Shown here: positions 6,051-22,932 of the stretch, piece after piece
Position numbering within the stretch: the stretch's first letter is position 1
How the letters are laid out: each line of letters opens with the position of its first letter
Assembly (NCBI GenBank): GCA_002695005.1
Contig: NZNT01000026.1
Coordinates: 381,588-421,587 of the forward strand
DNA: 40,000 nucleotides
Reading direction: 5' to 3'
DNA from: Maritimibacter sp.
GTDB lineage: Bacteria > Pseudomonadota > Alphaproteobacteria > Rhodobacterales > Rhodobacteraceae
The notes under the pieces: model-generated
The model's database searches: none
Seen by the model: the letters and a program-made list of their open reading frames with translations, nothing else
Told to the model about the DNA's origin: nothing
Translations under genes and position numbers: made by a program

Positions 6051-6065
6051 GCAGGTTGCGTAGCC

Positions 6066-6887
6066 ATGTCAGACACTCAGACCTCAGACGAAAAGGTGAG
6101 CCCGGCCTATTCCGTGCCCCCGGTAGAACGCGCCTTTCGACTGTTGCGCCATATCGCGGCGGGCAACCGATGCCGGAACCTGAACAAGACCGCGAAAGAG
6201 ATCGGCATCAACCGCACCACGTTGATCCGACTTTTGGCCACACTGGAGGCCGAGCGCATGATCGACGCCGTGTCGGACGGGGGCGGCTACCGGCTTGGCA
6301 CGGGTCTCATCACGCTCGCCTCGCAGGCGCTGAACGAACGGGGGTTGGTGCCGACGGCGCGCCCGGTGCTGCGCCAGCTGGTGGATGATCTGAACCTGTC
6401 GGCCCACCTTGGCGTGCGCGACGGGCGCGATATCGTCTACCTCGCGCGCGAAACGCCGAACTCCCACCTTGCCAGCATGGTGCGCGAAGGCACCCGCCTG
6501 CCTGCCCATGCGACGACCATCGGACGTATCCTGCTCGCTTCCATCAGCACGCGGGAGTTGAAGGAAATCTATGCGGGCCAGTCGCTCAAGGCGTTCTCGG
6601 ACAAGACCCGCACGACATTGGACGACCTGCTGAGGCAGCTGGAAAGCGACAGGGCGCAGGGCATTTCGTGGAGCGTGGCGAATTTCGAGCCCGACATCGG
6701 CTCGGCCGCGGTCGCGATCTACGATCATCAGGGGCAAGCCGTCGCTGCGATCAACGTGACCGGCCATGCTAGCACCTTCGCATCGGATGGCCCGATGGTC
6801 GAAGAGATCGAGGAAAAGCTCAAGGGTGCTGCGCGTGAGATTTCCGAGGCGCTCGGCTATCGCGGCTGGGGTGCGGATCAGATGTGA
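6066..6887 (+). CDS. IclR family transcriptional regulator
   Basis: From ATG 6066 the translation reads MSDTQTSDEKVSPAYSVPPVERAFRLLRHIA…. An N-terminal wHTH is followed by an IclR effector domain (…AHLGVRDGRDIVYLARE…LPAHATTIGRILLA…). The upstream part of the 451-aa track ORF overlaps the TSUP gene and is not coding. Confidence 0.85.
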   Translation: MSDTQTSDEKVSPAYSVPPVERAFRLLRHIAAGNRCRNLNKTAKEIGINRTTLIRLLATLEAERMIDAVSDGGGYRLGTGLITLASQALNERGLVPTARPVLRQLVDDLNLSAHLGVRDGRDIVYLARETPNSHLASMVREGTRLPAHATTIGRILLASISTRELKEIYAGQSLKAFSDKTRTTLDDLLRQLESDRAQGISWSVANFEPDIGSAAVAIYDHQGQAVAAINVTGHASTFASDGPMVEEIEEKLKGAAREISEALGYRGWGADQM

Positions 6888-6893
6888 CCGCGC

Positions 6894-7496
6894 TCAGGTC
6901 CAGACATAGCCATAGGCGAGGTCGAAGTCCTCCGCACGAATGGCGCGGTTGCCGATCTGCCCGCCGCGCAGCCAGAGCCGACCATGGACTTGCGTCCCGT
7001 CAAAGCGCGTCTCGGGCGGCAAGGCCACATGGTCGAGCCAGAGGCCGCCCATGCACTCCCCCTCCGACAGCAGCGCCGCGCCTTCGACGCGCGCGCCCTC
7101 GAACGAGAGGTTGCCGTTGCAGGTGACACCCGGCATCGTGACGCCTTGTGCGAACCGGGCACGGTCGAAGCGGGCGATGCCGCGGAAATCCGTGGCCGAA
7201 AAGTCGGCCTGACCGTCGAACTGCGCCTCCTCGAACCGGGCGTCCGAACCGAAGGTCGCGCCGGAGAAACGGGCGTCGCCCGCAAACCGTGCGCCCGTGA
7301 ACCAGCTCAGGCCAATGAACTGCGCACCGGAGGCGTCCACACCGTCCGGGAAATGCGCCCCCGAGAAATCGACGCCGGACAGGACAAAGCCGGACAGATC
7401 GAGCGGCCCGTCGCAGGTGATCCCCGCAAAGGACGTATGCGCCCCGTGCCGATACGGACGGGAGAGCGCCGCGCGAATCTCGTCCGGCGCGGTCAT
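6894..7496 (-). CDS. Pentapeptide-repeat protein (200 aa); last gene of the large operon
   Basis: There are consecutive 5-residue repeats with a central F/L (…ARFAG DARFS GATFG SDARF EEAQF DGQAD FSATD FRGIA RFDRA RFAQG…). Its ATG overlaps the flavodoxin stop (ATGA at 7493-7496). Confidence 0.85.
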   Translation of the reverse strand: MTAPDEIRAALSRPYRHGAHTSFAGITCDGPLDLSGFVLSGVDFSGAHFPDGVDASGAQFIGLSWFTGARFAGDARFSGATFGSDARFEEAQFDGQADFSATDFRGIARFDRARFAQGVTMPGVTCNGNLSFEGARVEGAALLSEGECMGGLWLDHVALPPETRFDGTQVHGRLWLRGGQIGNRAIRAEDFDLAYGYVWT

Positions 7497-7960
7497 GCGG
7501 CGGCGCCAAGCCGCTCTTCGGCCTGCGAGATGATCTCTTCGGCCCAGGGAAATGCGAGGTCTTCGGCCATCTCCGGGCCGGAGGCGTCATGCGCCACGCG
7601 TTCGCCGATCTGCGTCGCGCCGTGGGCCAGCATCAACTCGGCGAGCCGCTTGGGGCCGTGATTGAACGTTTCGTCGTATTCGCTGTCGCCCATCCCGAAG
7701 ATCGCGAAATGAATGGCCGAAAGATCGGGCTTGGCCGCCTCCATCGCCTCGGCAAAGGGCTGGGCCGACGCAGGCAGTTCGCCGTCGCCATAGGTCGAGC
7801 AAACCAGCAGGTAGAGATGTTCGGGCACGAGCGACATCGGGTCCACGTCCGACAGGTTCTGGCAGGAGACGTCGTGATCGCCCTCAAGCTCGGACTGGAT
7901 ATCCTCGGCGAGCATCTCGGCATTGCCGGTTTCGGTCCCGTAAAGAATGCTGATGTTCAT
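7493..7960 (-). CDS. Flavodoxin (155 aa)
   Basis: From the ATG at 7960 the translation reads MNISILYGTETGNAEMLAEDI…LLVCSTYGDGELP…FAIFGMGDSEY. This includes the flavodoxin FMN-binding signature (T/S)xTGN. The 37-aa Arg-rich extension in the track ORF was rejected. There is an ATGA overlap with the upstream reductase. Confidence 0.85.
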   Translation of the reverse strand: MNISILYGTETGNAEMLAEDIQSELEGDHDVSCQNLSDVDPMSLVPEHLYLLVCSTYGDGELPASAQPFAEAMEAAKPDLSAIHFAIFGMGDSEYDETFNHGPKRLAELMLAHGATQIGERVAHDASGPEMAEDLAFPWAEEIISQAEERLGAAA

Positions 7961-9192
7961 CCCGTGGTCACTCCTTTGCTTGCGAGGCGAGTCATTTCTT
8001 CGCGTGTCGTGATCTTGGCGCGGCACCGCCCTTCGGGCAGCGCCTCGGTTTCGGCGGCGTCGATGCGACACCAGCCGTCGTAATCGACGAGCCCTGTGCG
8101 GCCCTCGAAGATCGCGCGTCCTGGCTTTGCAGGGTCTGCGGTCAGATCGTCAAGGATGTGCGTCGCGAGCGCCTGCGCGTCGGCACGGTTTTCCGGGATC
8201 GTGCCGCGTGGACCGCGCCGGAACCAGCCGGTCGCGTAGAGACCCGGCGCGAGCGCCCCTGCCCCGGCGTCGGTCGCGCTTTCCAGAAGGGCGTCGCGCG
8301 GCAGGTCCGGGTCGGCGTCGAAGCCGATCGCCGTCAGAACCGATGTGCAGGGGATCGTTTCGTCGCCCGCGTCGCTCGTAAATCGAACCGCGCGAACCTG
8401 CCCTTGTGAGCCGATTACCTCTGCAGGCGTCAGGCCGAACCGGAAGGTCACGTTGCGCGCACCGCTGCCATGACCGGCGATGGAGGCGAGCGCGTCCAGC
8501 GTCTTCACCGCGTCGGGTTCGTCGCTCGCGCCTGTGCCCACGACGTCGATGCTGACACCGCCCAGCTTGGCGAGTTCCTTGATCATGACGGGATCGAATT
8601 TCGCCGCCGCCGCGGGTGAGCGACCGGTGATCGTGAGGGACTCGATCCCGGCTCCGGCCAGCCAGTCGGTCGGACCGGCGCCGAGGTCGGACCCGGCGAG
8701 TTCATCGGGGTCTTTCGCCAGAAGCCGCAGCAGGTCGATGGCGACGTTGCCGTTACCGACGATGAGGGGATGCGCCCCGAGCTCAGGGAGCGTTTCTGCA
8801 TCTGGGTGATCGTAGAGTGCGCGGGTCAGCCGCCCGGCGCCGAACACACCCGCGAGGTCGTCGCCGGGAATTCCGAGCGGCCGGTCCACCGGCATTCCCG
8901 TAGCGAGGACCACCGCGTCATAGGCTGCGCGCAAGTCTTCGAGCGCGACGTCATCACCGAGCCGCAGACACCCGAAGAACCGCGCACCCTGCCGTTCGAA
9001 CACGCGGGCGAACTGGCGTGTGACTGCCTTGGTTCCCTGGTGGTCCGCCGCGACTCCGTAACGTACGAGTCCGTAGGGCACCGGCAAAGCGTCGATCAGG
9101 TCGACCTCCAGGTCCGGCGCCGCCTTGAGCAGCGACTGGGCCAGATAGCAGCCGGACGGACCTGCGCCCACGATGGCGATCTTTCCGCTCAT
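7957..9192 (-). CDS. FprA/adrenodoxin-reductase-type NADPH:ferredoxin(flavodoxin) oxidoreductase
   Basis: From the ATG at 9192 the translation reads MSGKIAIVGAGPSGCYLAQSLLK…LPVPYGLVRYGVAADHQGTK…. A second dinucleotide fold follows (LIVGNGNVAIDLLRLL). This matches the FprA/AdR family pattern. There are ATGA overlaps at both ends. Confidence 0.75.
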   Translation of the reverse strand: MSGKIAIVGAGPSGCYLAQSLLKAAPDLEVDLIDALPVPYGLVRYGVAADHQGTKAVTRQFARVFERQGARFFGCLRLGDDVALEDLRAAYDAVVLATGMPVDRPLGIPGDDLAGVFGAGRLTRALYDHPDAETLPELGAHPLIVGNGNVAIDLLRLLAKDPDELAGSDLGAGPTDWLAGAGIESLTITGRSPAAAAKFDPVMIKELAKLGGVSIDVVGTGASDEPDAVKTLDALASIAGHGSGARNVTFRFGLTPAEVIGSQGQVRAVRFTSDAGDETIPCTSVLTAIGFDADPDLPRDALLESATDAGAGALAPGLYATGWFRRGPRGTIPENRADAQALATHILDDLTADPAKPGRAIFEGRTGLVDYDGWCRIDAAETEALPEGRCRAKITTREEMTRLASKGVTTG

Positions 9193-10697
9193 GGCGTCAC
9201 CGCAGCCCCCGCCCACGGGATCGGGGCGCCCGTGAGGTCGGTGTAAAAGCCTTTCTGACGCATGTAAGCGCGCAGGCCTTGTCGGCCCTTTTCACGCCCG
9301 ATGCCGCTCGCGCCGTCCCCGCCAAAAGGCGTCGACACCGAGAACTGCTTGTAGGTGTTGTGCCAGACGGTCCCGGCCTGAATGGCTTGCCCGACGCGCC
9401 AGGCGCGGGGAAAGTCACGGGTCCAGATGCCGCAGGCGAGGCCGTAGTCGTTGTCGTTGGACTGCGCGATGACGTCCGCCTCGTCGTCGAAGGGCAGAAC
9501 GGCGAGCACCGGGCCGAACACTTCTTCCCGGCAGAGCCGCGCAGTGTTGGGGAGGCTCGAAAGGATCGTGGGCAAGTAATAGCTGCCCCCGTCATACTCT
9601 GGCCCCTCTGGCGCGCGGCCACCGGTCAGAAGCTCGGCCCCGTCCGCGAGCGCCTGTGCGACATGCGCCGCGACCTCGTCCCGATGATCCATGTGGATGA
9701 GCGGGGCGACCTGCGTGGCCGGATCGAAGGGGTGGCCCACCACGAGCCGTTCGGTCGCTGCGACCAGCCGGGAGACGAAGCTGTCGAAGATAGAGCGTTC
9801 GACGAAGAGCCGCGAGCCGGCGATGCAGCTTTGGCCGGTCGAGGAGAAGATGCCGTAGAGCACACCGGCGATCGCGGTGTCCATGTCGGCATCGGCGAAA
9901 ACGATGGTCGGGGATTTGCCGCCGAGTTCGAGACTCACCGGCATGAGTTTCTGCGCCGCCTTCACGGCGAGCGCACGGCCCGTCTCGGTGCCGCCGGTGA
10001 AGCTCACACGCGCGATGTCCGGATGTTCTACGAGCAGATTACCGATCTCACGCCCAGATCCTGGAAGAACCGAGAACAGACCCTTGGGGCAGCCGGCCGC
10101 GTCCACGATCCGGGCCAGTTCCAGTGCGGTCAGCGGCGACCAGGAGGCGGGCTTGAGGATGACGGCGTTCCCGGCCGCAAGGGCCGGGGCGACCTTCTGC
10201 GCGTCCGAGGCGATGGGAGAGTTCCAGGGCGTGATCGCGGCGACCACACCCATCGGCTCGTAGACCGACAGGGTCATCGCAGGTCCGCGCCGGGTGGTAA
10301 GCTCCTCGTCCATCGTCTCCAACACCGCGCCGAAGTAGCGAAACGTCCCGGCGGCGGACGCGGCGAGCGCTCCCGTTTCGGCCAATGTCTTGCCGGTATC
10401 GCGCGACTGGATGCGCGAGATGCGTTCGGCATTGGCTTCGATCCCGTCCGCGATGCGATAGAGGAGCCGCGCGCGTTCATGTGGCTTGAGCGCGCGCCAG
10501 GCGGGATCGGCCTGTGCGGCCTTGGCCTTGGCGATGGCCTCTTCCCCGTCAGCGGCACTCGCGCCGCGAAACACCCGGTTCACCCGACCGTCCGCCGGAA
10601 AGATCGAAGTGATCTCGGCCCCGCGCCCATCGCGCCATTCGCCTGCGAGAAAGAGCTTGCCCTCGGGAAGCTCGGCGTTCACGTCCATATCCTTCAT
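9189..10697 (-). CDS. NAD(P)-dependent aldehyde dehydrogenase family protein
   Basis: ALDH hallmarks are present: …FTGGTETGR…, the ELGGKSP glutamate motif and the catalytic Cys context GQSCIAGSR. Length is 502 aa. Confidence 0.9.
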   Translation of the reverse strand: MKDMDVNAELPEGKLFLAGEWRDGRGAEITSIFPADGRVNRVFRGASAADGEEAIAKAKAAQADPAWRALKPHERARLLYRIADGIEANAERISRIQSRDTGKTLAETGALAASAAGTFRYFGAVLETMDEELTTRRGPAMTLSVYEPMGVVAAITPWNSPIASDAQKVAPALAAGNAVILKPASWSPLTALELARIVDAAGCPKGLFSVLPGSGREIGNLLVEHPDIARVSFTGGTETGRALAVKAAQKLMPVSLELGGKSPTIVFADADMDTAIAGVLYGIFSSTGQSCIAGSRLFVERSIFDSFVSRLVAATERLVVGHPFDPATQVAPLIHMDHRDEVAAHVAQALADGAELLTGGRAPEGPEYDGGSYYLPTILSSLPNTARLCREEVFGPVLAVLPFDDEADVIAQSNDNDYGLACGIWTRDFPRAWRVGQAIQAGTVWHNTYKQFSVSTPFGGDGASGIGREKGRQGLRAYMRQKGFYTDLTGAPIPWAGAAVTP

Positions 10698-14948: not shown

Positions 14949-15761
14949 TCATTTTGCCGGGACCGTTTCCTGTTCGAGTGCCGTCGCGAATGCAGCCGGC
15001 GCCTGTTGGTAGATCGCGTGCCCGGCCTCGGGCACGAGTGTGAAGGCCCCGCGGTACCGCGCGGGCACGGCGGCATGGGCGCGGCGCGCGCCGTCCGGCG
15101 GCGTCACCACGTCGCCCGCACCGACGATGACATCGGTGGGCACCGACAGCCGTTCGGCATCGTCGAGCAGCCGGCCCGACGCGAGCATCCGCGCGGCCTG
15201 CGCGTAGCCCGGCAGTTTGACCCGGGACATGGCGTCGCGCACGATCTCGACCGCTTCGGGGTGGTCCTCGGCGCGGTGAACGAGGCGGGCGGCCCGTGCT
15301 GCGGCAAAGGCAGCGGCCCCTTCGTGCTCCAGATCGTCGATCCGGCTTTGCGCGGCCGAGCTGAGCCCCCCGCCCCGGACAACGCCGTGACCCAGCGCGG
15401 GCGAGGCCATGACGAGCCGGCACACAAGGTCACCGTGGCGGGCGGCGAAGGCCGCCCCCATAAGAGCGCCCAGCGAATGCCCGACAAGCGTCGCCCGCCC
15501 GATATCGAGCGCAGCGAACAGGCGGCGCAGCGCCGCGGCGTAATCCGTCGCCTCCGGCCACTCCCGGTCCAGCGGGTGGGACTCGCCATAGCCCGGCGCG
15601 CTCCACGCGATCACACGCGCCGAGCGCGGCAGGTGCGGCAGAAGCGGTGTGAACGACGCGGCTTGCGAGCCGATGCCGTGAAGGAGGACGAGTGTCTCAC
15701 CGTTGCCGGGACGTTCGAGGTACTCGAGCCCGGCGGCGCTATGCGTGGTCCAGCCGCTCAT
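14949..15761 (-). CDS. Alpha/beta-fold hydrolase (meta-cleavage-product hydrolase-like)
   Basis: From the ATG at 15761 the translation reads MSGWTTHSAAGLEYLERPGNGETLVLLHGIGS…. The nucleophile elbow is GHSLG and a C-terminal GH is present (PEAGHAIY). There is an ATGA overlap with the upstream SDR. Confidence 0.82.
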   Translation of the reverse strand: MSGWTTHSAAGLEYLERPGNGETLVLLHGIGSQAASFTPLLPHLPRSARVIAWSAPGYGESHPLDREWPEATDYAAALRRLFAALDIGRATLVGHSLGALMGAAFAARHGDLVCRLVMASPALGHGVVRGGGLSSAAQSRIDDLEHEGAAAFAAARAARLVHRAEDHPEAVEIVRDAMSRVKLPGYAQAARMLASGRLLDDAERLSVPTDVIVGAGDVVTPPDGARRAHAAVPARYRGAFTLVPEAGHAIYQQAPAAFATALEQETVPAK

Positions 15762-16498
15762 GTGAACACGAAGCCGTTGTTGACCGGCAGCACCTGCCCG
15801 GTGAGGGTCAGCGCGCTTTCGGTCAGCAGGAAACATGCCACCTCGGACACGTCGCCCGTGTCCTGCGGCCCCGGCACGGCGCGGCCGTCCTGGTAGAACC
15901 TGTGGCGGTGCTCCGGCACATATTCCGTGCTTTCGGTCGTCAGGATGCCGGGCGCGATGGCGGTGACGCCCACCCGATCCGGCCCGAGTTCGCGCGCGAG
16001 CGATCGGGTCATTGAAATAACCGCGCCCTTGGACGCGACATAGGACAATAGGTTCTGGGCCCCCCATAGCGCCGTGTCCGAGGCGACGTTGACGACCCGA
16101 CCGGACCCCGACGCCTTGAGCAGCGGCGCGGCGGCACGGGTCATCAGCCAGGTGCCGCGCACGTTGACGCGCTGGACAAGATCCCAGGTGTCGATCTCGA
16201 TGGCGTCGAACGGGATGCCGCCGATACCCGTCGCGATGGCCCCGTTGTTGACCAGCCCGTGCAGTTTCCCGCCCGTGCGCTCGGCCACCCCGGCGGCCAG
16301 CGCCTCGATCGAGGCCGGATCACCAAGGTCGACGGGCAGGAAGTCTGCGCCCAGCGCCTCGGCCGTCGCGCCTCCCGTTTCCTCGGCAATGTCCGCGAGG
16401 ATCAGCGATGCGCCCTGGCCGGCGAGGGTCTTGGCGATTTCGGCGCCAAGACCGCGGGCCGCGCCGGTCACGAGGATATGTCGTCCGTCGAGCGTCAT
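15758..16498 (-). CDS. Classical SDR oxidoreductase (dihydrodiol/3-oxoacyl reductase-like)
   Basis: Motifs VTGAARGLG and NNGA are present, with catalytic S…YVASK. There is a 1-nt overlap (TAATG) with the Rieske gene stop. Confidence 0.88.
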   Translation of the reverse strand: MTLDGRHILVTGAARGLGAEIAKTLAGQGASLILADIAEETGGATAEALGADFLPVDLGDPASIEALAAGVAERTGGKLHGLVNNGAIATGIGGIPFDAIEIDTWDLVQRVNVRGTWLMTRAAAPLLKASGSGRVVNVASDTALWGAQNLLSYVASKGAVISMTRSLARELGPDRVGVTAIAPGILTTESTEYVPEHRHRFYQDGRAVPGPQDTGDVSEVACFLLTESALTLTGQVLPVNNGFVFT

Positions 16499-17541
16499 TA
16501 TTCCGCCGCTACCTCGGCAGCCTTCAGCTCCGCCTCGATCTGCGCCTTGGCGGCGCGGGTCAGGACCTGCCGGATACGGCTTACACCAAGGTCATGCTGG
16601 TAGAGCATCTCGCGCTTGCGGGCGTCGTCCGGCATGCCTTCGAGCATGACGCGGTCCTGCTCCAGCACGTTCCAGTGGTTCTCCTCAAGCTGGGCGCGAT
16701 AGAGGAAACGCCAGCTTTCGCGCGCGGTCCCTTCCACCTGGCGCATCCGCCAGAAGAAGACCTTGGTCGTGTGGGCGTCCATCGGGGTGGTGTAACCGAT
16801 GATGCGGAACACGCCGCCCGGGCCGCCTGCGGGTGGATAGGGAATGTCGAGGAAACAGAACATCGTGCCTTGGTGAACCTCGAACTCGGTCCAGTCGAAA
16901 TTCTCACCCGTCTGGCCGACCCGCTCGATCCGGAACCCGCTGTCGGTCTTGTCGAGCTTCATGAGGTCCTGTTTGGAACCAAATGCCAGCGTGAAGCTCT
17001 CGGAATGGAGGTAACAGCCGTGCATCGGGTCGGCGAGGTTGTCGAGCGCGTAGCGGTAGTTTGCCTCCCAGACGGACGTGCAGAGAAAACCAGTCCATTC
17101 GTCGCTGACCAGCTCCTTGGGCAGAACCAGTTCCGGAGCCTCCGGCTGATCGACCGAGGGGACATAGACGAACACGGCGTCGTTGCTCTCGGTCACCTCA
17201 TAAGAGGTGAGCGCCTTGCGGCCCTCAAGCGCGCAATCGGGCATCGCGGGGACCCTGACCACGACACCGTCGCCGTCGACGATCACGCCGTGGTAGCGGC
17301 ATCCGATGTGGCCTTCGTGGATCTCGCCATATGAAAGCGGCGCGCCACGGTGCGGGCAGAAGTCCTCGATGCAGCGGATCTTGCCGGACCCATCGCGCCA
17401 GAGGACGACCTTCTCGCCCAGAAGCCGGGTGCCGTAGGGCTTGGAGGTCTTCACCTCCACCGACTTCGCCACCGGATACCACTGGCCGCGCAGGCCCTCG
17501 TTCACCCGGTTCTCGATCAGGGTTTTCTTGTCGACTGTCAT
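16498..17541 (-). CDS. Rieske [2Fe-2S] non-haem-iron oxygenase, alpha-only type (VanA/TsaM/phthalate-family-like), 347 aa
   Basis: The Rieske motif is CPHRGAPLSYGEIHEGHIGCRYHG (CxH…CxxH). The mononuclear-iron region is NLADPMHGCYLH (HxxxxH). No beta-subunit gene is adjacent. Confidence 0.88.
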   Translation of the reverse strand: MTVDKKTLIENRVNEGLRGQWYPVAKSVEVKTSKPYGTRLLGEKVVLWRDGSGKIRCIEDFCPHRGAPLSYGEIHEGHIGCRYHGVIVDGDGVVVRVPAMPDCALEGRKALTSYEVTESNDAVFVYVPSVDQPEAPELVLPKELVSDEWTGFLCTSVWEANYRYALDNLADPMHGCYLHSESFTLAFGSKQDLMKLDKTDSGFRIERVGQTGENFDWTEFEVHQGTMFCFLDIPYPPAGGPGGVFRIIGYTTPMDAHTTKVFFWRMRQVEGTARESWRFLYRAQLEENHWNVLEQDRVMLEGMPDDARKREMLYQHDLGVSRIRQVLTRAAKAQIEAELKAAEVAAE

Positions 17542-19414: not shown

Positions 19415-20185
19415 TCAGGCTGCTTTTTCTTCGAGTTTCAGATGCTTAAAGAGCTGCGCGGCGTATTCGCCGACTTCCGGCAGAACCCGGCGCCTGATCG
19501 GTTGATCCCGATGCGGCAGGTCCACCTTGATTTCCGCGATCACCTGACCCGGACGCTCGCTGAGGACGAGAATGCGATCCGACATGAGGACGGCCTCGGA
19601 AAGGTCGTGCGTGATCAGGAGCGTGGTCTTGCCCGCGTCCTTGATCGTCTTGGCAAAGGAGTTCTGGAGAAGGAGTTTGGTCTGGGCGTCGAGCGCCGAG
19701 AACGGCTCGTCCAGCAGGATGATTTCCGGGTCGATCGAGAGCGTGCGCGCGAGGGCCGCACGCTGCCGCATTCCGCCGGAAAGCTGGTAGGGAAAGTGGT
19801 TCTCGAAGCCGGACAACTGGCAATGGTCCAGCTCCTTCATCGCACGGGCGCGCCGGTCAGCCTTGGGCACGCCGCGGGCTTCGAGCCCGAATTCGATGTT
19901 CGCGATGATGTTGCGCCACGGCAGGAGCAGGTCTTTCTGGAGCATGAACCCGACGTGCGAGTTGGGTCCGGTCACCGGCACGTTAGAAACGAGCACCTCG
20001 CCCGACGTGGGCTGATACAGGCCCGCGGTCATCGACAGGATGGTCGACTTGCCGCAGCCCGAGGGGCCGACGACCGATACGAACTCGCCTTCCTCCACGC
20101 GGAAGCTGACATCATCGACGGCGAGGAGTTCCCCGTCGCCTTGCGTCGCGAAAGATTTGGAGACATTGCGGAACTCAAGCGCCAT
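19415..20185 (-). CDS. ABC transporter ATP-binding protein (NitT/TauT family)
   Basis: From the ATG at 20185 the translation reads MALEFRNVSKSF…. Walker A GPSGCGKST, signature LSGGMRQRAALAR and Walker B ILLDEP are present. Confidence 0.9.
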   Translation of the reverse strand: MALEFRNVSKSFATQGDGELLAVDDVSFRVEEGEFVSVVGPSGCGKSTILSMTAGLYQPTSGEVLVSNVPVTGPNSHVGFMLQKDLLLPWRNIIANIEFGLEARGVPKADRRARAMKELDHCQLSGFENHFPYQLSGGMRQRAALARTLSIDPEIILLDEPFSALDAQTKLLLQNSFAKTIKDAGKTTLLITHDLSEAVLMSDRILVLSERPGQVIAEIKVDLPHRDQPIRRRVLPEVGEYAAQLFKHLKLEEKAA

Positions 20186-20477
20186 AACCGTGCTCCTGAT
20201 AGGCGGCTTCGAGATCGGCATTGATGGCGGCGAGCTCTTTGGCGAGGCTCTCTTCGGTCCAGTCGGTCCCGCCTGAGATCGGCGCAACCACGCCCCGCTC
20301 CGTGAGCGCCTTGGCGACAAGCGCGAAGTCATGCGTGCCGTCGGAATAGATATCCATGAGAGCGGCTGCGAGCGCCGTTTCCGCGTCTGTCAGGTCACGC
20401 CCCCGGCTCTGGTGCGCCAGTGCCGGACGGCCGGTATCCCGCGCCCGCTCTGAAAGTCTGTCCTTGAATGCGTCCAT
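20175..20477 (-). CDS. Small (~100 aa) hypothetical protein, possibly a recombinase-like HTH domain protein; first gene of the operon
   Basis: The ORF reads MDAFKDRLSERARDTGRPALAHQSRGRDLTDAE…HDFALVAKALTERGVVAPISGGTDWTEESLAKELAAIN…. The ATG at 20477 has GGGGG 8 nt upstream, and GTG at 20486 is an alternative start. Its 3' end overlaps the ATPase start by 11 nt. The family assignment is from memory of similar small proteins and is weak. Confidence 0.5.
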   Translation of the reverse strand: MDAFKDRLSERARDTGRPALAHQSRGRDLTDAETALAAALMDIYSDGTHDFALVAKALTERGVVAPISGGTDWTEESLAKELAAINADLEAAYQEHGYGA

Positions 20478-20511
20478 TCCTGGCACCCCCTGTCGTTTGC
20501 TCTAACGGATA

Positions 20512-20529: not shown

Positions 20530-20650
20530 TATGTTCAAATACGATTTTTCGTTCAATTCGATCTTGAGTCAACATCTTTTTCGGGTCTTGGGGGCGCGAA
20601 GGGCTGCGGGATGCGGCCAACTTGACCGAAGTGCCTGATATCTGGCATTA

Positions 20651-20682
20651 TTCATATTTGAAATTTACGTTCATTTATGAAC
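20651..20682. promoter_or_regulatory. Two small palindromes, TTCATATTTGAA and GTTCATTTATGAAC, upstream of the FAD monooxygenase gene
   Basis: TTCATATTTGAA spans 20651-20662 and its reverse complement is TTCAAATATGAA. GTTCATTTATGAAC spans 20669-20682 and has 6-bp arms. Both lie 33-64 nt upstream of the ATG at 20715. Confidence 0.35.
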
Positions 20683-20714
20683 ATTATACCGTGAAAGAAG
20701 AAGGAACAGCGACA

Positions 20715-21869
20715 ATGACAGGATTGACCATAGCGATAGCCGGCGGCGGCGTTGGCGGGATGACCCTCGCCATTGCGCTTCAGGCGCGCGGACATAATGT
20801 TCGGATCTTCGAACAGGCTCAGGCCTATGGCCGTGTTGGTGCGGATGTGAACCTCACCCCGAACGCGGTCCACGCACTCGACGGTCTCGGAGGGGGCGTC
20901 GGGGCCGCACTGCGCAAAACGGCGGCGCGCCCGGAGTTCCGAATCAGCCGGATGTGGGACGACGGGCGCGAGACATCACGCCTCCCCATGAGCACGGCGG
21001 CCGAGACGAAGTATGGCGCGCCGCAGCTCACCATCCACCGCGCCGACCTTCTGACCGCCCTGGAGGCCGCCCTCGCACCCGACACGATTCGCTTCGGCAG
21101 CCCGGTCAGCGGGTATCGCGAGGACGGGACACACGCGCGCCTGACCTTTGTCGACGGGACCGAAAGCGAGCCCGCGGACGTGGTGGTCGGCGCAGACGGC
21201 ATCCACTCGGTCCTGCGCTCGCAGATGTTCGGGCCCGATGCGCCGCGCTTCACAGGACTCGTGTCCTGGCGGGCGGTCGTGCCGCGTGCGGCGGTCGAGG
21301 GTCTCGACAACCTGGACAGTTTCACCAAGTGGTGGGGTCCGGAGGCCGAGCGCCAGATCGTCACCTTTCCCCTGTCGCGTGGCGAGGAAATCTTTGTCTT
21401 TGCGACCACGCCCGCCTCGGACTGGAGCGCGGAGGGCTGGACCCTGCCCGGCGACGTGGAAGAGCTGCGCGCTGCCTATGCCGACTTCCACCCCGACGCC
21501 CGCGCCCTGCTGGACGCAGTGGACGAGGTCACGCGGTCGGCACTTCATGTGCGTGAGCCCATGAACGCCTGGTCACGGGGGTGTGCAACGATCCTTGGCG
21601 ACGCGGCTCACCCGATGGTGCCGTTCATGGCGCAGGGGGCCTGCATGGCAATCGAGGACGCGGTCCTTCTGACGCGCGCTCTGGATGCGCACGCAAACGA
21701 CATCTCCTCGGCACTCCGTTTTTACGAGGACAGTCGCCGCGACCGGACAGCGGCGGTCCAGCGCGGATCGCTCGCGAACGACTGGCTCAAGCAGGGCGGG
21801 AACGCGGACTGGGTCTATGGCTACAGCGCGTGGGACGCGCCGCTGGGCGAACCGGTCGCGACGGCCTGA
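20715..21869 (+). CDS. FAD-dependent aromatic monooxygenase (salicylate / 3-hydroxybenzoate hydroxylase-like)
   Basis: From the ATG at 20715 (GAAGGAA upstream) the translation reads MTGLTIAIAGGGVGGMTLAIALQARGHNVRIFEQ (GxGxxG). Later motifs are VGADGIHSVLR and GDAAHPMVPFMAQGACMAIEDA. Confidence 0.85.
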   Translation: MTGLTIAIAGGGVGGMTLAIALQARGHNVRIFEQAQAYGRVGADVNLTPNAVHALDGLGGGVGAALRKTAARPEFRISRMWDDGRETSRLPMSTAAETKYGAPQLTIHRADLLTALEAALAPDTIRFGSPVSGYREDGTHARLTFVDGTESEPADVVVGADGIHSVLRSQMFGPDAPRFTGLVSWRAVVPRAAVEGLDNLDSFTKWWGPEAERQIVTFPLSRGEEIFVFATTPASDWSAEGWTLPGDVEELRAAYADFHPDARALLDAVDEVTRSALHVREPMNAWSRGCATILGDAAHPMVPFMAQGACMAIEDAVLLTRALDAHANDISSALRFYEDSRRDRTAAVQRGSLANDWLKQGGNADWVYGYSAWDAPLGEPVATA

Positions 21870-21892
21870 GGCCCCCCAGCCCTTCGAACAAC

Positions 21893-21917
21893 GCGGCGCT
21901 CCGGCGTCGCTTTTTTT
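21893..21917 (+). terminator. Rho-independent terminator after the monooxygenase gene
   Basis: GCGGCGC-TCCG-GCGTCGC forms a 7-bp stem with one G·U pair. It is followed by TTTTTTT (21911-21917). Confidence 0.6.
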
Positions 21918-21932
21918 CCTAGCCACGCACGG

Positions 21933-21964
21933 AAAACGGGCCGCCCCTGTCACAGGACGGCCCG
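21933..21964 (-). terminator. Hairpin terminator after the bicupin gene
   Basis: CGGGCCG…CCTGT-C-ACAGG…CGGCCCG is a nested palindrome (21937-21964). On the minus strand it is followed by TTTT (21933-21936). Confidence 0.5.
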
Positions 21965-21981
21965 GGATTGAAAGGGCGCCA

Positions 21982-22932
21982 TCAAGCTGCGGCGTAGACC
22001 ACGTCATCCTGCTTCGCAGACCCGATGACGGTCCAGACCGTGGCATGTGCCGCCCCGTTGTTACGGAACCAGTGCTTGCGGCCCGCCGGTGTCTTGACGA
22101 GGTCGCGGGGGCCAAGCTCGACCTCCACCTGCTCGCCATCCTCGGCTTCCCACCCGACGGTCAGCGACCCTTCCAGCACGAAGAAGGCGTCCTCGACATC
22201 CCGCACGAAGGGCGCGACGCCCACGCGGCTCGGCACGCCCCACATCTCCTTGCGGCAGCTGTCGTTGTCGATCCCGCCCTCACCCACATAGACCTTGCGG
22301 GTGAAACCGGCGTCTTCCCAGATCGTCGGCAGTTCGACATGGCGCACGACGTACTTGCCCATGAGCTGTTGCAGCGGATGATCGCCCGCCGGATCGAAGG
22401 GCATCGTCTTGCCCGGCTGCGCCCCGAAACTGCGCGCGAGTTCCGGCGCGTGATCCTTGGGGTGGTAATGGTATTTCGGCGGGAGCGGTTTGCCCACGTC
22501 GACCGAGATCGACATCAGGACCGGCTCCACTCCGTCCACGCGAAAGCCATGCCCGACCTCACGCGCGTTCAGGATCATGTCCTTGGGGCCGAGATTGACC
22601 TCGACCACCTCGCCATCCCGCTCCCATCCGACGATCAGCGCCCCGTCGATGATGAGGAAGCTCTCTTCGATCTCGTGGCTGTGGCAGGCCGCATAACGCC
22701 CCGGCTCCTTGTAGATGAGCGACAGGGTGAAATGGTCGGGCTTCAGGGTCGTCGTGTCGCCGACCTTGGGCGACCCGCCCGCCCCGATATAGCGCATCTG
22801 TGCGCGGGCGAGTTCATCGTATCCCGAGTTCGACGGGAAGGCGTCCCAGTCGAAGGCCTTGTCGGTGAAGCGCCCGGTATGGGCCTTGAGGTCCCCGGCA
22901 AGGGGGCTCGGAGTTCCGGCTTGGGTGTTCAT
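21982..22932 (-). CDS. Bicupin protein (gentisate/hydroxyaromatic dioxygenase-like); function unassigned
   Basis: The N-terminal cupin has a perfect motif 1, G-RYAAC-HSH-EIE-E-SFLIID-G. The second cupin domain (…APFVRDVEDAFFVLEGSL…) lacks the HxH ligands. Confidence 0.7.
   Translation of the reverse strand: MNTQAGTPSPLAGDLKAHTGRFTDKAFDWDAFPSNSGYDELARAQMRYIGAGGSPKVGDTTTLKPDHFTLSLIYKEPGRYAACHSHEIEESFLIIDGALIVGWERDGEVVEVNLGPKDMILNAREVGHGFRVDGVEPVLMSISVDVGKPLPPKYHYHPKDHAPELARSFGAQPGKTMPFDPAGDHPLQQLMGKYVVRHVELPTIWEDAGFTRKVYVGEGGIDNDSCRKEMWGVPSRVGVAPFVRDVEDAFFVLEGSLTVGWEAEDGEQVEVELGPRDLVKTPAGRKHWFRNNGAAHATVWTVIGSAKQDDVVYAAA

Follow-up and report, generated by a model that had tools for sequence, protein, structure and literature searches.

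A putative flavin-only electron supply and a pentapeptide-repeat protein at the end of a Rieske oxygenase operon of Maritimibacter sp.

The stretch of DNA analyzed here (the window, 40,000 nucleotides of contig NZNT01000026.1) comes from a marine member of the Rhodobacteraceae, Maritimibacter sp., whose genome is 4.27 Mb long and 99.8% complete, and it carries on its minus strand a long and tightly packed operon whose last three genes encode an FprA-like reductase, a flavodoxin, and a pentapeptide-repeat protein (PRP). The operon starts with an HTH_62 protein, an ABC importer of the NitT/TauT type, and an alpha-only Rieske oxygenase, continues with a short-chain dehydrogenase (SDR1), an alpha/beta hydrolase, an extradiol dioxygenase (EDO), and a second short-chain dehydrogenase (SDR2), and reaches its tail through a thiamine-pyrophosphate (TPP) enzyme, an aspartate-dehydrogenase-like protein (AspDH), and an aldehyde dehydrogenase (ALDH) (Table 1). 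Each of the three tail junctions is an ATGA overlap, namely between the ALDH stop and the reductase start (ccATGAgc, 9192-9189), the reductase stop and the flavodoxin start (ggATGAac, 7960-7957), and the flavodoxin stop and the PRP start (gcATGAcc, 7496-7493). A look for RNA reads that could bear on co-transcription showed the sequence in DNA runs only. Open reading frames, junctions, and domain matches agree in this respect with a preliminary description of the window made from its letters alone, which had read the tail as an FprA-type reductase, a flavodoxin, and a PRP, all ATGA-coupled. We propose that the tail is made of two functional units, a flavin-only electron module and a PRP that would be an accessory of the oxygenase, and we put the probability of this reading at about 0.6.

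Table 1. Main features of the operon and of its borders, with coordinates as positions of the window.
Feature	Coordinates	Strand	Length	Basis and remarks
FprA/adrenodoxin-reductase-like FAD flavoprotein, proposed from its sequence as an NADPH-dependent flavodoxin reductase	7957..9192	-	411 aa	Pfam, PDB matches, motifs
Short-chain, cindoxin/MioC-like FMN flavodoxin	7493..7960	-	155 aa	Flavodoxin_1, PDB matches, phosphate loop
PRP, closing the operon; proposed as an accessory partner of the oxygenase	6894..7496	-	200 aa	Pentapeptide_3
Alpha-only Rieske oxygenase, proposed acceptor of the flavodoxin electrons and proposed partner of the PRP	16498..17541	-	347 aa	Rieske and VanA_C (Pfam)
ALDH	9189..10697	-	502 aa	Pfam Aldedh, 531 bits; stop overlaps the reductase start
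SDR1	15758..16498	-	246 aa	Pfam adh_short; lies between oxygenase and PRP in type-B loci
Small HTH_62 protein, opening the operon	20175..20486	-	103 aa	Pfam HTH_62, 2e-13
IclR-family regulator, convergent	6060..6887	+		IclR_C and HTH_IclR; ends 6 nt from the PRP stop

The reductase, which is the only FprA-like gene of the genome, matches Pfam Pyr_redox_2 at 49 bits, and its best sequence match in the Protein Data Bank (PDB) is FprA from M. tuberculosis (1lqt, 1e-50, residues 5-351), followed by adrenodoxin reductase (1cjc, 1e-46). Its translation shows the dinucleotide-binding motifs GAGPSGC (GxGxxG, for FAD) and GNGNVAID (GxGxxA, for NADP(H)). The flavodoxin, also the only stand-alone one of the genome, reaches 96.8 bits with Flavodoxin_1, for which the Pfam cut-off is 25, and its best PDB match is cindoxin (4oxx, 2.8e-27), the FMN partner of P450cin, with MioC well behind (4e-16). 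The FMN phosphate loop, GTETGNAE, is invariant across 20 orthologs. The protein stays below the equivalog level for MioC or FldA (the best NCBIfam model is MioC, with 100 bits against a cut-off of 158), and the closest named flavodoxin is that of Maritimibacter harenae, with 90% identity.

The oxygenase has its Rieske motif, CPH...CRYH, at 17290-17358, lacks a beta subunit, and has phthalate 4,5-dioxygenase, CarAa, and DdmC as PDB relatives. The electron-transfer partners of Rieske oxygenases define their classes and guide their reconstitution for biocatalysis, and to our knowledge the accepted classes all use an iron-sulfur reductase or a ferredoxin. A linked [2Fe-2S] reductase or ferredoxin, as required by Batie classes I-III, is absent from the window and from the loci of the same gene order. 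Indeed, tblastn queries with 15 proteins encoded in this genome (Fer2, VanB-like, NAD_binding_1, and Rieske-ferredoxin ones) detected no VanB-type reductase and no plant-type, adrenodoxin-type, or Rieske ferredoxin in the window, the only matches being to the Rieske domain of the oxygenase itself, and a six-frame motif scan of the whole 40 kb found no 4Fe-4S or 2Fe-2S ferredoxin motif besides CPH...CRYH. Both searches confirm the earlier statement that the window encodes neither type of partner. It contains no P450 gene either, while about seven are found on the other contigs. Genome-wide, there are 15 Rieske-domain matches and about seven VanB-type reductases (Fer2 with NAD_binding_1), several of which adjoin other Rieske oxygenases; one VanB-like gene lies at C2:95928-96524.

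The related loci, numbered here with L (genomes are numbered with G), differ in where the tail genes are placed. In type A, represented by the window and by L022-L025, L030, L034-L036, L086, L088, L119, and L121 among others, the operon ends with ALDH-FprA-flavodoxin-PRP; Marinovum, Mameliella, and Nitratireductor are among the genera with this type. In type B (L027-L029, L032, L051, L052, and L070-L085), a bicupin-HTH_62-oxygenase-SDR1-PRP operon is ATGA-coupled throughout, the remaining pathway genes form a separate convergent operon, and there is no FprA-flavodoxin pair; the placement of SDR1 between oxygenase and PRP is seen in the gene order of L027-L032 and L070-L085. In type C (L031/L063, L016, L017, and L123), oxygenase and PRP come first and the FprA-flavodoxin pair closes the operon without a PRP. 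Other orders are ALDH-PRP in L009 and AspDH-PRP in L053. An overlap of 4 or 1 nt between the PRP start and the stop of the gene before it recurs in nearly all of the roughly 40 related loci and cannot be put down to chance. An apparent oxygenase-PRP fusion, seen in G128, G356, and G079 as an open frame of 554 aa, was rejected: in L031 the two are adjacent genes in different frames, so that the long frame is an artefact of high GC content. At the other border of the PRP gene, the IclR and PRP genes of the window converge (6885-6896) with 6 nt between their ends, a space too short for a terminator, and L087, L119, and L121 likewise have an IclR gene next to the end of the operon.

Only one enzyme of the operon, the Rieske oxygenase, needs external electrons, and comparison of gene neighborhoods suggests that the FprA-like reductase and the flavodoxin are most probably the operon's own supply of them. 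The type-A operon with its FprA-flavodoxin tail is rigidly kept in many Rhodobacterales and Rhizobiales; the flavodoxin is found in more than 120 clusters at an identity of at least 66%, and the operon as a whole is frequent among marine Rhodobacterales and Rhizobiales. Furthermore, homologous clusters from other proteobacterial classes (L054-L062) encode an oxygenase with 48-50% identity and share most or all of the pathway genes compared (SDR1, hydrolase, EDO, SDR2, TPP enzyme, AspDH-like protein, and ALDH). FprA, flavodoxin, and PRP are absent from these clusters, in which a VanB-type reductase lies beside the oxygenase (L054, L055, and L058) or at the operon end after ALDH-EDO (L057), or a Rieske-type ferredoxin lies beside the oxygenase (L059-L062). 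That one or the other replaces the FprA-flavodoxin pair in otherwise homologous clusters points to a non-orthologous displacement of the electron-supply function.

The pair also recurs outside this pathway, next to other enzymes that depend on single electrons of low potential. FprA-flavodoxin pairs with 45-58% identity adjoin P450s in L124, in the order FprA-flavodoxin-P450, and in L131, and a cindoxin-like flavodoxin is found next to a P450 in L127. In L128, the pair lies beside, and divergent from, a LigXa-like Rieske oxygenase; the gene of the latter (7658-9402, minus strand) is split over two frames, with the Rieske domain at 8908-9402 and the catalytic domain at 7658-about 8890, which reflects either a frameshift or an assembly error. 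In L129 (7372-12246), it stands beside a BoxB-like diiron oxygenase of the PaaA/PaaC type with a NAD_binding_1-thioesterase fusion, and in L125 (1-8462) it follows a 1824-aa GOGAT-like protein (large subunit) and a CysJ-like diflavin reductase. The neighborhoods with BoxB-like and GOGAT-like proteins suggest that the client range of the module is wider than one oxygenase class. In other alphaproteobacterial families, FprA homologs with 35-45% identity are common single-copy genes (91/401 genomes), and none of the 29 best of these homologs has an adjacent flavodoxin. The first unit of the tail would thus be a portable, iron-sulfur-free electron-supply module, made of an FprA-like FAD reductase and a cindoxin-like FMN flavodoxin, along which electrons would pass from NADPH to FAD and then to FMN. 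The flavodoxin would deliver them one at a time to the [2Fe-2S] Rieske centre, from where they would reach the mononuclear iron; we infer both this direction and this acceptor.

Several observations weigh against an electron chain from this pair to the oxygenase. In a sample of 401 Rhodobacteraceae genomes, taken as one per genus and including related genomes that are not independent of each other, the oxygenase ortholog occurs in 18, and at 6 of these 18 loci the FprA-flavodoxin pair is missing. FprA was not found genome-wide in five of them (G192, G329, G107, G165, and G147, the last being 84% complete), while the sixth, G298, has a type-B locus and was examined at the locus only. G732, from a separate phylum-level sample, has neither FprA nor flavodoxin. 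The existence of such genomes, which have VanB-like genes elsewhere, implies that this lineage of oxygenases does not need a linked reductase, and the oxygenase of the window could likewise be served by an unlinked one, its genome having candidates in the VanB-like reductases mentioned above and also other possible clients for the pair in its P450 genes. In vitro, the E. coli flavodoxin and flavodoxin reductase, a non-cognate system, failed with the Rieske oxygenase CAO, whose activity was supported by VanB, TsaB, and DdmAB (PMC9615114). In a three-chain prediction with the oxygenase and the PRP, the flavodoxin scored 0.00, which for a transient electron-transfer complex is neither support nor counter-evidence.

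These points bear on an alternative in which a generic VanB-type reductase encoded elsewhere reduces the oxygenase and the FprA-flavodoxin pair serves another client, be it a P450 of the genome in trans or the EDO of the operon, which would be reductively reactivated in the way known for XylT-type ferredoxins. The type-B relatives, which have no linked reductase (in three of them no FprA or flavodoxin ortholog was found at all), the number of VanB-like and P450 genes in the genome, the failure of the non-cognate flavodoxin system, and the constant presence of an EDO in the pathway speak for this alternative. We nevertheless regard this alternative as unlikely because the pair is translationally coupled into the oxygenase operon in dozens of genomes, fills the slot held by VanB-type reductases or Rieske ferredoxins in homologous clusters, and adjoins electron-requiring oxygenases in its other contexts, while type-B and beta/gamma clusters keep the EDO without the pair. 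The flavin-only chain to the Rieske centre put forward in the preliminary description is therefore strengthened by the displacement and reuse of the pair and weakened by the related genomes that run the same oxygenase without any linked reductase, a finding that goes part of the way toward a dedicated reductase encoded elsewhere. Its remark that such a supply is not standard holds, as no paper on this type of partner was found: in the literature searched, no Rieske oxygenase was described as having a flavodoxin for its native partner, and a review from 2025 on electron transfer to Rieske oxygenases names flavodoxin only in references on P450 fusions (PMC12445004).

The last gene of the operon follows a different logic from the flavoprotein pair. 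The PRP matches Pentapeptide_3 at 87.4 bits (Pfam cut-off of 27), and AF2 models it as a beta-helix whose short strands follow each other regularly over the whole length (pLDDT of 96.5). The family is marked by an N-terminal R-P-W-R-H-G-E-H motif and by the invariant residues G62, W65, D85, R87, G106, G150-G151, W153, and G172-R173. In the sample of 401 genomes, a PRP was found in 19 and in all 18 that have the oxygenase, the single extra match being weak (E = 6e-11) and to a different PRP. The 18 genomes with both proteins each come from a different genus, and neither the oxygenase ortholog nor the PRP is present in another species of the genus that the window is from. The PRP is most simply read from this distribution as a lineage-specific accessory of the oxygenase and not of the redox pair.

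Structure prediction gives weak support to the idea that the PRP binds the oxygenase. The predicted complex of the two scored an ipSAE of 0.56 (runs of 0.58, 0.55, and 0.56) while three controls all scored 0.00. Of solved complexes, 58 of 80 attain this mark, against 2 of 110 mismatched pairs, but scores up to 0.60 are often wrong. On the oxygenase side, the predicted interface comprises the N-terminus, residues 192-196 and 208-209, and the C-terminal helix region 306-328, and residues E10, D192, D306, R310, and M312 of the oxygenase are at least 95% conserved only in the PRP-bearing lineages, which in this comparison are alphaproteobacterial. For the conservation of the interface in PRP-bearing versus PRP-lacking lineages, the consensus identity was 0.42 against 0.55, which is only mildly suggestive. 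On the PRP side, the predicted face comprises G62, D85, G106, G150-G151, and G172-R173, and 7 of 12 invariant columns fall in the interface (hypergeometric p = 2e-4), which speaks for the docking, although the overlap cannot count as independent of the alignment that went into the model. Since the oxygenase was folded as a monomer, assembly of the native alpha3 trimer might hide the site.

The second unit of the tail would then be the PRP as a dedicated accessory of this oxygenase lineage, always the last cistron of the oxygenase operon, with the exception of type C, in which oxygenase and PRP come first. One conserved face of its beta-helix would dock on the catalytic domain of the oxygenase at the C-terminal helix region (306-328). 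As the weakest step of the proposal, our best guess is that the PRP acts there as a structural or stabilizing subunit, or as an adaptor for assembly or docking. What is directly observed for the two units is their gene content, translational coupling, homologies, and co-occurrence.

Other functions were considered for this protein. The overlap of its start with the flavodoxin stop, in the window as in other type-A loci, had led the preliminary description to suggest a role together with the redox proteins, for instance as a scaffold that holds or docks them. We explain this overlap by the fixed last place of the PRP gene in the operon of the oxygenase. The suggestion itself appears very improbable and was not borne out: a PRP is present in every genome with the oxygenase ortholog, including those in which no FprA or flavodoxin was found (G732, G192, G329, G107, and G165), it directly follows the oxygenase in type C while the FprA-flavodoxin pair ends the operon without it, and it was not found beside FprA-flavodoxin pairs in the non-homologous contexts examined. 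Nor is any contact with the flavodoxin predicted, as shown by the null score of the latter against oxygenase plus PRP. The association of the trio with Rieske genes, about which the same description had asked, consequently stands for the PRP, which accompanies the oxygenase in 18 of 18 genomes, and not for the FprA-flavodoxin pair, which is missing at a third of these loci.

A more classical function would be that of a DNA mimic related to Qnr, MfpA, or AlbG, shielding gyrase or another DNA-binding enzyme from the pathway substrate or from a reactive intermediate, in the manner of a self-protection gene that accompanies the catabolic ones. The preliminary description had preferred another role to that of a DNA mimic, and its doubt seems reasonable. 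Immunity PRPs are encoded inside gene clusters for gyrase poisons, the size of the PRPs studied here (170-210 aa) and their beta-helix fold match MfpA and Qnr, and a Foldseek search with the model returned QnrB1, another PRP, and AlbG as top matches. These matches are all generic PRP or beta-helix ones, with poor TM-scores owing to repeat-register problems, and fold likeness among PRPs is itself generic. We consider this function improbable, given that the PRP has no NCBIfam match (1e-3) and no PDB sequence match (1e-2), Qnr, MfpA, and AlbG included, that the orthologs range in pI from 4.7 to 9.9 and in net charge from about -11 to +3, so that an acidic, DNA-like surface is apparently not conserved, that the homologous beta/gamma clusters do without a PRP, and that the conserved face of the protein is predicted to contact the oxygenase.

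A further small protein travels with the oxygenase. The HTH_62 ("recombinase-like HTH") protein, of about 103-108 aa, is encoded at the head of the operon in type A, and in types B and C its gene directly precedes that of the oxygenase. It accompanies the oxygenase in all related loci, with tblastn matches in 27 of them, and occurs also in at least two clusters with a VanB-type reductase (L057, 9157-9474, and a weak match in L058), the type-B copy of L070 being located at 7878-8201. It was considered as a possible ferredoxin and rejected because it is free of cysteine and matches HTH_62; it may be a regulator or a further accessory of the oxygenase. A reductase hidden near the type-B loci was also looked for, and the region downstream of the PRP contains neither reductase nor ferredoxin.

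The surroundings of the operon provide some hints about the pathway. In the window, genes for a FAD monooxygenase, similar to 3-hydroxybenzoate 6-monooxygenase, and for a 316-aa bicupin (20622-22932) flank the promoter region of the operon. Both are conserved alongside the pathway in loci of types B and C, the bicupin being the first gene of the oxygenase operon in type B, and they probably belong to the same pathway. In type-B loci (L070:10535-16166), the oxygenase-SDR1-PRP operon is adjoined, downstream of the PRP, by genes for two FAD monooxygenases, an arylsulfatase, and a TRAP transporter. The importer of the window is a NitT/TauT (SsuA/taurine-like) ABC system with an NMT1/SsuA-like binding protein, which, together with the arylsulfatase and TRAP transporter of type B, hints at a sulfonated or sulfated aromatic compound as the substrate. 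The pathway core (oxygenase, SDR1, hydrolase, EDO, SDR2, TPP enzyme, AspDH-like protein, ALDH, and IclR) is kept far beyond the alphaproteobacteria, in the L054-L062 clusters, which carry TctC, MFS, or porin uptake genes. This core seems functionally uncharacterized. It presumably resembles the PA3498-PA3514 region of P. aeruginosa, and a literature search on PA3504-PA3507, possible Pseudomonas homologs of the core, returned nothing on their function.

We tentatively propose, as a possibility that goes beyond the two-unit reading, that both units together form an undescribed Rieske system, with a chain free of iron-sulfur carriers and a dedicated PRP subunit on the catalytic alpha subunit. If true, a native flavodoxin-based chain would add an electron-transfer class to the Rieske oxygenases, would supply electrons in a way that spares iron, plausible for life in seawater poor in this metal, and would provide a simple set of two flavoprotein partners for heterologous use. 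PRPs are abundant and most have no known function; the one-to-one pairing of a subfamily with a given oxygenase provides a role other than DNA mimicry that lends itself to direct tests, and a PRP acting as an oxygenase subunit would be the first with a role in an oxygenase complex.

The proposed system can be set against several known ones. The reductase of the window shares full-length homology and both dinucleotide motifs with FprA of M. tuberculosis and mitochondrial adrenodoxin reductase, but it is about 45 residues shorter, and while those enzymes reduce iron-sulfur ferredoxins, its adjacent and coupled partner is a flavodoxin. In this respect, a close counterpart is the P450cin system of Citrobacter braakii (cindoxin reductase with FAD, cindoxin with FMN, and P450cin), a two-protein, flavin-only chain from NADPH through a FAD reductase to a FMN flavodoxin, to which the ATGA-coupled genes for an adrenodoxin-reductase-like and a cindoxin-like protein correspond; the acceptor there is a P450, whereas the linked candidate here is a Rieske non-heme iron oxygenase. 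With the class IA systems (VanAB, TsaMB, and phthalate dioxygenase with PDR), the locus shares an alpha-only oxygenase with Rieske and VanA_C-type catalytic domains, but their FMN/FAD-[2Fe-2S] reductase has its place taken by two separate flavoproteins free of iron-sulfur clusters, and a PRP is added. By analogy, the PRP may be compared with the beta subunits of alpha3beta3 Rieske oxygenases, which are likewise small (about 170-200 aa), cofactor-free, and co-expressed, and which bind the catalytic domain, as is predicted for the PRP; their fold is NTF2-like and that of the PRP a beta-helix. Finally, the gyrase-protecting DNA mimics MfpA, Qnr, AlbG, and McbG have in common with the PRP a pentapeptide-repeat beta-helix of similar length, but no sequence kinship beyond the repeat is detectable and the charge of the PRP is not conserved, while the PRP is set apart from them by its family-specific N-terminal motif and its strict co-occurrence with a catabolic oxygenase.

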